Counted from the stretch's first letter, positions 33,440 to 33,751 are shown. The stretch is DNA of 64,000 bases from an uncultured Candidatus Saccharibacteria bacterium (GCA_964429815.1 CAYSCM010000001.1:128001-192000), one strand, 5' to 3'. The notes: generated by a model from the sequence alone, not told the origin. A program made the numbers and translations.

Positions 33440-33751
33440 TTAGCAACACTCAAGACCACCACCTTGCACCGACGCTTCACAACTTCCTCCTCCCCCACCC
33501 CCTTCAGCAAATCCATATCCCGATTCAGAATAATATGATGACTGGCCATAGTATCCTGACTGGCCGTAGTACGTAGATTGACTATAAGGAGTATCGGCTG
33601 AAGTAACGTTTGGAACGGCAAGTCCGCCAAGATTCCCTACTGATGGCACAGCGGCTGACGAATCTTTATTCAATAGATTAGTGAAGAAAATAAAAACTAC
33701 CAGAGAGGCAAGTGACAAAGCATTGATAACTAGTTGTCCAAGCGAACGCAT
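33440..33751 (-). CDS. Small Tyr/Gly/Ser-rich protein with hydrophobic N-terminus and C-terminal ...SCEASVQGGGLECC; candidate precursor/substrate peptide
   Basis: 103-aa ORF directly downstream of the YcaO gene; YYGQSGYYGQSSYYSESGY repeats, a Gly6 tract and a terminal Cys-Cys. Confidence 0.55.
   Translation of the reverse strand: MRSLGQLVINALSLASLVVFIFFTNLLNKDSSAAVPSVGNLGGLAVPNVTSADTPYSQSTYYGQSGYYGQSSYYSESGYGFAEGGGGGGSCEASVQGGGLECC

Follow-up and report, generated by a model that had tools for sequence, protein, structure and literature searches.

A probable YcaO precursor peptide with a predicted membrane-anchor leader in an uncultured Candidatus Saccharibacteria bacterium

Introduction

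Gene clusters for linear peptides that contain azol(in)es (LAPs) have already been reported from Candidate Phyla Radiation (CPR) bacteria, in which 110 clusters were found in 93 genomes, with genes for a YcaO enzyme, a nitroreductase, a peptidase and an 84-aa putative precursor (Sharrar et al. 2020, PMC7298704). The kind of system is therefore known. In addition, a PxPxP motif has been associated with azoline-forming YcaOs (PMC12338566), and bufferins have been shown experimentally to be peptides made by the ribosome and modified after translation (RiPPs) that use Sec signal peptides (PMC11626156). Here we analysed 64,000 nucleotides of DNA from an uncultured Candidatus Saccharibacteria bacterium (GCA_964429815.1 CAYSCM010000001.1:128001-192000), a stretch that is called the window in its full length, with the focus on a 103-aa open reading frame (ORF) downstream of a YcaO gene. 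According to our analysis, the ORF is probably the ribosomal precursor and substrate of the adjacent YcaO cluster, and a Tyr-rich member of an undescribed, CPR-wide family.

Results and Discussion

The ORF and its parts

Positions are counted from the first letter of the window, and the proposed cleavage site is marked by an arrow.

33440..33751, minus strand: precursor-like ORF of 103 aa with an ATG start and its stop codon at 33440-33442; translated sequence MRSLGQLVINALSLASLVVFIFFTNLLNKDSSAAVPSVGNLGGLAVPNVTSADTPYSQSTYYGQSGYYGQSSYYSESGYGFAEGGGGGGSCEASVQGGGLECC
33596..33751, minus strand: leader, residues 1-52, with a basic MRS start, a helix and a spacer of ~25 aa
33671-33736, minus strand: hydrophobic helix within the leader, residues ~6-27
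33587..33604, minus strand: junction T50-S51-A52-D53-T54-P55 (TSADTP), of the form [A/V/T]-x-A↓D-x-P; here leader and core are proposed to meet and to be cleaved apart
33515..33586, minus strand: Tyr-rich repeats YSQSTYYGQSGYYGQSSYYSESGY of the YYGQS type, residues 56-79
33443..33484, minus strand: Cys tail SCEASVQGGGLECC, residues 90-103; candidate sites of cyclodehydration by YcaO

As the first-pass annotation had described, the ORF combines a hydrophobic N-terminus, YYGQS-type repeats, a Gly6 tract (residues 84-89) and a Cys-Cys end. The core, D53-C103, has 51 residues, among them 3 Cys, 9 Ser and 2 Thr, and lies at the Cys-poor extreme of the family. Public assemblies carry an identical called protein (P0001). 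Tandem Repeats Finder detected no tandem repeat in the DNA under the Tyr repeats, suggesting that these are kept up at the protein level, and recent DNA slippage as their origin was ruled out by the same empty result. The start of the ORF lies 50 nt past the YcaO stop (33802), and ~18 nt separate its end from the next gene on the same strand, so that the arrangement is operon-like. A scan of the DNA for promoters and terminators gave counts no higher than those of shuffled sequences.

A precursor family linked to YcaO

Homologues of the YcaO number more than 130 and come essentially all from CPR bacteria (Patescibacteria); 28 of them were aligned, and 43 genome loci were retrieved. In 35 of the 43 loci, a small ORF of the same build lies downstream of YcaO, or of YcaO and the dehydrogenase SagB, and the loci that lack one are mostly truncated contigs. 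Meanwhile, the small ORF is present in all 16 loci that have YcaO together with an AMMECR1-toroid fusion, the pairing that had been singled out beforehand as the place where the precursor assignment might be refuted. These counts establish the genomic linkage of the family to YcaO and, with the azoline type of the enzyme, support the substrate role that the first-pass annotation had proposed.

The precursor family comprises 42 sequences; its junction was counted in an alignment of 32 sequences and its invariant columns in one of 37. Members are 58-121 aa long and share one architecture: a basic N-terminus and a helix of ~20 aa are followed by a spacer that varies, by the junction [A/V/T]-x-A-D-[V/A/T]-P and by a hypervariable tail. 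At the junction, A(-1) and D(+1) each occur in 32/32 sequences, position -3 is occupied by 23 A, 6 V and 3 T, and P(+3) is found in 21/32; the only invariant columns are those of A52 and D53. The dichotomy of leader and core is equally plain in composition: leaders contain 0.1% Cys and 10% Lys plus Arg, and cores (tails) contain 8% Cys, 17% Ser, 27% Gly, 15% Asp plus Glu and 0.6% Lys plus Arg. At least one Cys follows the junction in 40 of the 42 members and at least two in 37, and all leaders combined hold two. Lack of the Cys tail in homologues had been named beforehand as a second way to refute the precursor assignment; with these counts, neither this check nor that of the YcaO/AMMECR1 pairings refuted it. 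The leaders of loci L007 and L010 are nearly identical, and their cores are unlike. Most members have no Tyr repeats and carry short Cys/Ser/Gly/acidic cores of 20-40 aa.

The hydrophobic N-terminus, which had been regarded as atypical for a RiPP leader, turned out to be a hallmark of the whole family. The best 19-mer has a mean Kyte-Doolittle value of 2.06 across the family, the net charge is +3.5 on the N-terminal flank vs 0.0 past the helix, and the positive-inside rule holds in 41 of the 42 members. The distance from helix to junction has a median of 21 aa and a range of 5-36. Many spacers share [ILF]-F ~8-14 residues ahead of the junction, which may be a recognition element.

A strict filter, which required a transmembrane helix, [AVT]xAD and a tail with little Lys/Arg and much C/S/G/E/D/T/A/P/Y/Q, selected 26 ORFs in 685 kb of real sequence vs none in the reversed sequence and none in five triplet shuffles; its sole match within the window is the present ORF. 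With the decoy searches at zero, the ORF is not a product of chance. Profile searches in Pfam, NCBIfam and PDB assigned the precursors to no known family. A YxzE-like bacteriocin family was considered and rejected, as its score (Pfam E=1.6e-3) does not reach the cut-off and the match is confined to 1 of 37 family members; a type IV pilin-like signal was likewise rejected, as the G/F-T-L-I-E motif is missing from the sequence.

Cys is the last residue of 12 of the 42 precursors (binomial p=8e-5 against 8% Cys in cores), and the C-terminal residue may be functionally important. In L027 (5484-6293), L040 (5474-6277 and 6366-7064) and P0133, the Cys-rich core is fused straight to a Hint/intein-like autoprocessing domain. 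The domain begins at a Cys directly after the core; the 6366-7064 copy of L040, the sole scanned fusion with a match, matched PT-HINT at 1e-12. The Hint fusions imply thioester chemistry at the core C-terminus. Membrane-anchored rhodaneses were observed in 9 related clusters, with three tandem copies in L009 (6463-7998), L018 and L019; they hint at sulfur transfer, e.g. thioamidation, in those variant clusters.

The Tyr-rich branch and the Cys tail

A word-based (k-mer) search with the ORF returned one relative, P0002 from a Hainich groundwater metagenome, whose 1.1-kb contig has the gene order YcaO, small ORF and membrane protein as in the window. The Tyr-rich subfamily was found only by an exhaustive HMMER profile search together with the loci, which yielded eleven further Tyr-rich members (P0002, P0124, P0125, P0126, P0130, P0131, P0133, P0136, P0137, L004 and L043a). 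A metagenome scan keyed to YYGQS mostly picked up repeat proteins that are unrelated (L047-L049), and L043 in duplicate. The Tyr-rich members share ADTPYSQS, the YYxQS repeats and a Cys-containing tail, and all of those with genomic context lie in YcaO clusters: YcaO adjoins P0002, L004, L043a, P0124, P0125, P0126 and P0137, and P0131, on a 2-kb contig, adjoins a cluster-associated membrane protein. Directly upstream of P0131 lies a ~440-aa polytopic membrane protein that has Cys in its C-terminal domain and weak similarity to MauE, a type that we observed in 6 clusters (e.g. L035 2926-4251, L056 248-1531).

The Cys-rich tail had been proposed as the part modified by YcaO. As a Cys-containing region it is well kept, with C91 and C102 retained and Cys following the junction in nearly the whole family, whereas the literal terminal Cys-Cys is not conserved among the Tyr-rich members. 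The end of P0124, ...GGCETGLQGGGGNECC, closely resembles that of the window, ...GSCEASVQGGGLECC, and CE[AT][SG]..ECC is kept between them. Other tails end differently (P0002 ...AECEGGGSEMSI, P0125 ...YDC, L004 ...GDGC), and some run on past the second Cys. The conserved pattern of the tail is C-E-[AST]-[SG]...[ED]-C, which corresponds to C91 and C102, both of them kept in P0002.

YcaO and its partners

33802..35334, minus strand: YcaO of the azoline-forming type (thiazole/oxazole-modified microcin, TOMM; SagD), 510 aa (Pfam YcaO 1.9e-47)
35327..37216, minus strand: fusion of an AMMECR1 domain and an alpha/alpha-toroid domain, 629 aa; YcaO partner in 16 loci
32291..33427, minus strand: single-pass membrane protein with a tetratricopeptide repeat (TPR)-like domain, 376-378 aa; follows the precursor in 23 loci

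The length of the YcaO is most likely 510 aa, not the 552 aa of the maximal ORF. The protein matches TIGR03604 (SagD) over its full length at 4e-53, with 180.7 bits, below the family cut-off of 219. It ends in PHPFP, in which P506, H507, F509 and P510 are invariant among the 28 aligned homologues and P508 is conserved in at least 90% of them. The AlphaFold2 (AF2) model has a predicted local distance difference test (pLDDT) score of 86, and its best PDB matches are 7u58, LynD (4v1t/4v1v) and TruD (4bs9). By analogy with 7u58, a YcaO with ATP-dependent peptidase activity, cleavage at A↓D by the YcaO itself is a possibility. SagB is encoded in 33 of the 43 related loci (TIGR03605, 144.6 bits vs a cut-off of 78.4), and a tblastn search of the whole 64-kb window with 12 SagB homologues (E<=0.01) detected none.

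The AMMECR1 fusion carries an invariant Ser (S187) in place of the canonical AMMECR1 Cys. A protein that combines a phosphoribosyltransferase with a beta-propeller occurs in 13 loci (e.g. L009 3308-4954), and only 2 loci have both it and the AMMECR1-toroid fusion. Either of the two could be the missing leader-binding partner, and the AMMECR1 fusion or the N-terminal part of YcaO may hold a cryptic RiPP recognition element (RRE). The membrane-protein family profile matches TPR proteins and LapB; the protein of the window itself had no match in Pfam, and a homologue search with it returned 2 sequences only.

FAD oxidase, sulfotransferase and ligase

30490..32229, minus strand: FAD-linked oxidase, probably of the p-cresol methylhydroxylase (PCMH)/vanillyl-alcohol oxidase (VAO) group, 579 aa (Pfam FAD_binding_4)
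29495..30286, minus strand: sulfotransferase-like protein, 263 aa (Sulfotransfer_3 E=1.1e-5, 26.3 bits vs a cut-off of 27)
28029..29492, plus strand: PaaK/F390-synthetase-like adenylating enzyme, 487 aa, divergently transcribed

The FAD oxidase matches PCMH (1wve/1dii) at 3e-46, and eugenol oxidase and VAO at 1e-34 to 1e-28, in PDB searches, which point to its enzyme type and set it apart, by sequence, from a generic GlcD. PCMH, eugenol oxidase and VAO oxidise 4-alkylphenols at the benzylic carbon, and the Tyr side chain is a 4-alkylphenol. In the alignment, the Tyr of a GYG motif and an Arg are retained, which we take to be phenolate ligands of the Tyr/Tyr/Arg pocket, and the second Tyr is replaced by Gln. 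The FAD gene is found only in clusters with Tyr-Ser in the core (window, L004, L013, L039, L050 and L051-53); among the 28 precursors from loci without it, two have Tyr-Ser in the core (Fisher p=4e-4, kinship ignored). This co-occurrence suggests a tyrosine chemistry and, together with the assignment to a group acting on 4-alkylphenols, strengthens the earlier proposal that the FAD oxidase acts on Tyr. Its role as a substitute for SagB was rejected, as L004, L013, L039 and L051 have both genes.

The sulfotransferase-like sequence holds GCGRSGTS and RHPAETARS, which presumably represent 5'-PSB-like and 3'-PB-like motifs, respectively. A phmmer search against PDB gave no relative, and the single-sequence AF2 model (pLDDT 33) is unusable for fold comparison. 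No homologue was found in the 43 related loci or in the Tyr-rich clusters L004, L051-L053 and L043. Because the gene is absent from every related cluster, other Tyr-rich ones included, its link to the Tyr repeats is weak. The PaaK-like family occurs in 9 loci by clustering, the window included, and tblastn adds homologues in L004, L039 and L051-L053.

The island and its evolution

37262..37334, plus strand: tRNA-Arg(gcg), at the island edge

On the minus strand, the genes for the AMMECR1-toroid fusion, YcaO, the ORF, the membrane protein, the FAD oxidase and the sulfotransferase-like protein lie in a row, followed by the divergent PaaK-like ligase. They form an island (~28.0-37.25 kb) of 42% GC content inside DNA of 57% GC, which abuts tRNA-Arg(gcg). 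Orthologous clusters without a comparable GC anomaly occupy the same chromosomal site in L004 (4737-13400) and L051 (5799-14613). On one side the site is bordered by RuvA, a Mur ligase and tRNA-Arg, and its other neighbours are a p158-like gene and a TPR protein; the L004 cluster adjoins the same tRNA-Arg(gcg), and the L051 site was judged by its flanking genes. Identity to L004 and L051 is 65% for p158, the one flanking gene checked, vs 31-48% for the cluster genes, and the closest cluster, L050, is 55-57% identical and has 47% GC. Since the cluster genes are less conserved than the flanking p158 and no comparable GC anomaly is seen in L004 and L051, the data suggest that the window cluster is an in-situ replacement by a foreign allele, which lost SagB and Lactamase_B/DUF6817 genes and gained the sulfotransferase.

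Two genes lie in DNA of host GC content beside the island. One (26623-27345, minus strand) encodes a 240-aa TPR protein with a signal or transmembrane segment, relatives of which are found near YcaO in 25 of the 43 loci; the other (25876-26586, minus strand) encodes a 236-aa secreted Cys-rich protein with relatives near YcaO in 5 loci. Both may be conserved accessory genes of the system. Elsewhere in the window, tandem paralogous membrane-protein ORFs with nearly the same N-terminal sequence (MPLNAAEFRRRSEE...) were observed at 42808-43449 and 43786-44416 (minus strand); the second paralogue seems to be broken up into a pair of overlapping ORFs and may have suffered a frameshift or be a pseudogene.

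Proposed maturation and export

From sequence and context we infer a pathway that covers the chemical steps, topology, cleavage, export route and biological role of the peptide. The leader would be tripartite, with a signal-anchor (basic N-terminus and helix of ~20 aa), a recognition spacer of ~25 aa that probably holds the enzyme-recognition sequence, and a cleavage junction T-S-A↓D-T-P, after which the acidic 51-aa core D53-C103 would follow. Modification would take place first, in the cytoplasm, before translocation: YcaO needs ATP, so the modification must precede translocation, and at 103 aa the protein is too short for efficient co-translational targeting, its helix emerging near the end of translation, which makes cytoplasmic modification plausible. 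The ATP-dependent YcaO is expected to cyclodehydrate Cys91, Cys102 and Cys103, and possibly Ser of the Tyr-Ser motifs, to thiazoline and oxazoline. As the cluster has no SagB, the rings would stay at the azoline level or be few. The PCMH/VAO-like flavoenzyme might oxidise the benzylic C-beta of Tyr side chains by way of a quinone methide, so that beta-hydroxy-Tyr, dehydro-Tyr or a cross-link is formed, and in the window's cluster only, Tyr might also be O-sulfated by the sulfotransferase.

The helix would insert with its N-terminus in and its C-terminus out, through Sec/YidC; this N-in/C-out topology is predicted by the positive-inside rule and would expose the core outside the cell. Signal peptidase I, or else a different protease, may release the core by cutting behind Ala52, and the membrane-anchored TPR protein of the neighbouring gene possibly assists. 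With its [A/V/T]-x-A residues, the conserved site agrees with the -3/-1 (AXA) rule of signal peptidase. No transporter or protease gene is conserved in the related clusters, which agrees with the use of the general Sec machinery.

A new RiPP chemistry might follow from these steps, in which a quinone methide formed by the flavoenzyme on peptidyl Tyr would lie beside YcaO azolines at the conserved Tyr-Ser motifs and give conjugated dehydro-Tyr-azoline units or Tyr-Cys/Ser cross-links, with sulfated Tyr in the window, Sec export by the signal-anchor leader and release at AxA↓D; taken as a whole, this scheme is doubtful. If it were true, genome-reduced CPR bacteria would make modified peptides without a dedicated transporter or protease.

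Evidence against the precursor assignment and alternative explanations

Several observations weigh against the ORF being a YcaO precursor. Among the island proteins, searches in Pfam and NCBIfam found no E1-like, Ocin-ThiF-like or recognisable RRE partner, and over residues ~1-75 of the YcaO the model has low confidence and shows no clear winged helix. The core of the Tyr-rich subfamily is as conserved as the leader, unlike in most RiPPs, and with 3 Cys in the core and no SagB, the cluster fits a classical poly-azole LAP poorly. The association of the FAD gene with Tyr-Ser comes from four related clusters tested (six known), which are not phylogenetically independent. The AXA-like site lies at the distance from the helix given above, vs ~5 aa in ordinary signal peptides such as that of p158 in the same window (...TLA↓SD, ~5 aa from hydrophobic segment to site), so that cleavage by signal peptidase I is uncertain. 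Finally, long arrays of the YYxQS repeat are also seen outside YcaO clusters, in CPR proteins that are secreted or pilin-like and unrelated to the family, namely the pilin-like P0127, the signal-peptide-bearing P0134, P0135 and P0138, and L047-L049. The repeats may therefore act physically, for example in adhesion, rather than as enzyme substrates, and YYxQS has the look of an extracellular module that these organisms can reuse.

This last observation is among those favouring a secreted or surface-anchored structural or adhesive protein that the YcaO cluster decorates or cross-links; the ORF would still be a substrate, with a different role. The FUS-like Tyr/Gly/Ser/Gln segment might be sticky or cross-linkable, by quinone methides or dityrosine-type links, which would suit the episymbiotic lifestyle of CPR bacteria. 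By the predicted topology the core faces outward, within the subfamily the Tyr-rich core shows conservation like that of a functional protein, and a neighbouring enzyme is of a type that oxidises 4-alkylphenols. However, most members of the family lack Tyr repeats and have short, RiPP-like cores, and from the conserved A↓D junction it seems that the core is freed from its anchor, so we consider an adhesive protein unlikely, and the sticky or cross-linked segment no more likely. An exported metal-binding peptide, similar to a metallophore or bufferin, in which an azoline or thioamide tail would chelate copper or another metal, with rhodanese sulfur in some members, is quite improbable. The window has no rhodanese, TfuA or MNIO, the YcaO has the azoline-type PxPxP motif, and no metal-related genes were seen in the island, even though Cys, Asp, Glu and Gly abound in the cores and Lys/Arg are nearly absent from them, terminal Cys and membrane-anchored rhodaneses recur among the relatives (12 of 42 members and 9 related clusters), and bufferins are Sec-exported metallophores with Cys-derived heterocycles (PMC11626156).

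It is very improbable that the ORF is no substrate at all, being either a small single-pass membrane subunit by which a YcaO/TPR complex is held or regulated at the membrane, or a spurious ORF. The strong transmembrane helix, the next gene, which likewise encodes a single-pass membrane protein, and the failure to find a partner with a known leader-binding domain would fit a membrane subunit; yet a hypervariable, low-complexity, Cys-rich C-terminus and an invariant junction are unexpected of a scaffold, and the Hint autoprocessing fusions of L027, L040 and P0133 point to a processed peptide. A spurious ORF is contradicted by the decoy searches, which exclude chance. We therefore regard the ORF as a probable precursor of the YcaO cluster.

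Novelty and significance

CPR bacteria are uncultured, ultra-small, genome-reduced episymbionts, and we know of no secreted product of theirs that has been chemically characterised. The present analysis turns the vague annotation "LAP cluster in CPR" into a defined precursor family with a predicted leader/core boundary. It offers a searchable signature (transmembrane helix, spacer, [A/V/T]xAD-x-P and acidic Cys/Ser/Gly core) and a testable export model, in which the general Sec machinery would stand in for a dedicated transporter and protease. Meanwhile, the Tyr-rich branch ties YcaO to a flavin oxidase of the 4-alkylphenol type, and since the sequence of the 51-aa core is known, the predictions can be tested directly. 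In the literature, we found no description of a membrane-anchor leader with an invariant AxAD junction, nor of the Tyr-rich branch, nor of a PCMH/VAO-type oxidase paired with it; for the AMMECR1-toroid partner no description was found either, and the search gave no paper with both YcaO and AMMECR1.

Comparison with known systems

The closest described systems are LAP/TOMM clusters such as those of microcin B17 (McbA), streptolysin S (SagA) and the CPR LAPs. In common with them, the locus has a small gene beside a SagD-type YcaO with PxPxP, SagB in most of the related loci, and a bipartite precursor with a variable core rich in Gly, Ser and Cys. In contrast, the leader of the ORF is a predicted transmembrane signal-anchor with a spacer and an AxA↓D junction rather than a soluble leader, and the AMMECR1-toroid fusion takes the position of the E1-like or ThiF-like partner, neither of which was found in the cluster. 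In addition, the window lacks SagB, its core consists mainly of Tyr repeats with 3 Cys, and its cluster has a PCMH/VAO-type oxidase, a sulfotransferase and a PaaK-like ligase and encodes no ABC transporter or protease.

The cluster resembles RaxX/RaxST of Xanthomonas and the substrates of eukaryotic TPST in having a sulfotransferase-like gene (with putative RSGT-type 5'-PSB and R-x7-S 3'-PB motifs) in an operon with a Tyr-containing, presumably secreted peptide. It differs in that the sulfotransferase of the window has no detectable similarity to solved sulfotransferases, scores below the Pfam cut-off and is absent from other Tyr-rich clusters, and in that the acidic context typical of sulfated Tyr is found in the ORF only near Y56 and Y73-Y79. 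We also take the ORF to resemble the [G/S]Y[G/S]Q low-complexity domains of the FUS/EWS type in composition and in its SYGQ/YYGQS pattern; unlike these, its segment is bacterial, presumably extracytoplasmic, 24 aa long and part of a RiPP-like precursor, and homology is not implied.

Bufferins share with the ORF a small Cys-containing precursor in which an N-terminal export signal, a putative one in the ORF, replaces a dedicated transporter, Cys that are presumably converted to heterocycles before export, and a product that would act outside the cytoplasm. However, the enzyme here is a YcaO and not MNIO/DUF2063, and the island has no MNIO (DUF692) or DUF2063 domain. The hydrophobic segment of the ORF is also longer, its AXA-like site lies ~21 aa downstream, and its core is a disordered, low-complexity sequence rather than a folded small protein. 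The ORF is not a bufferin; what it would share with bufferins is only the logic of export.

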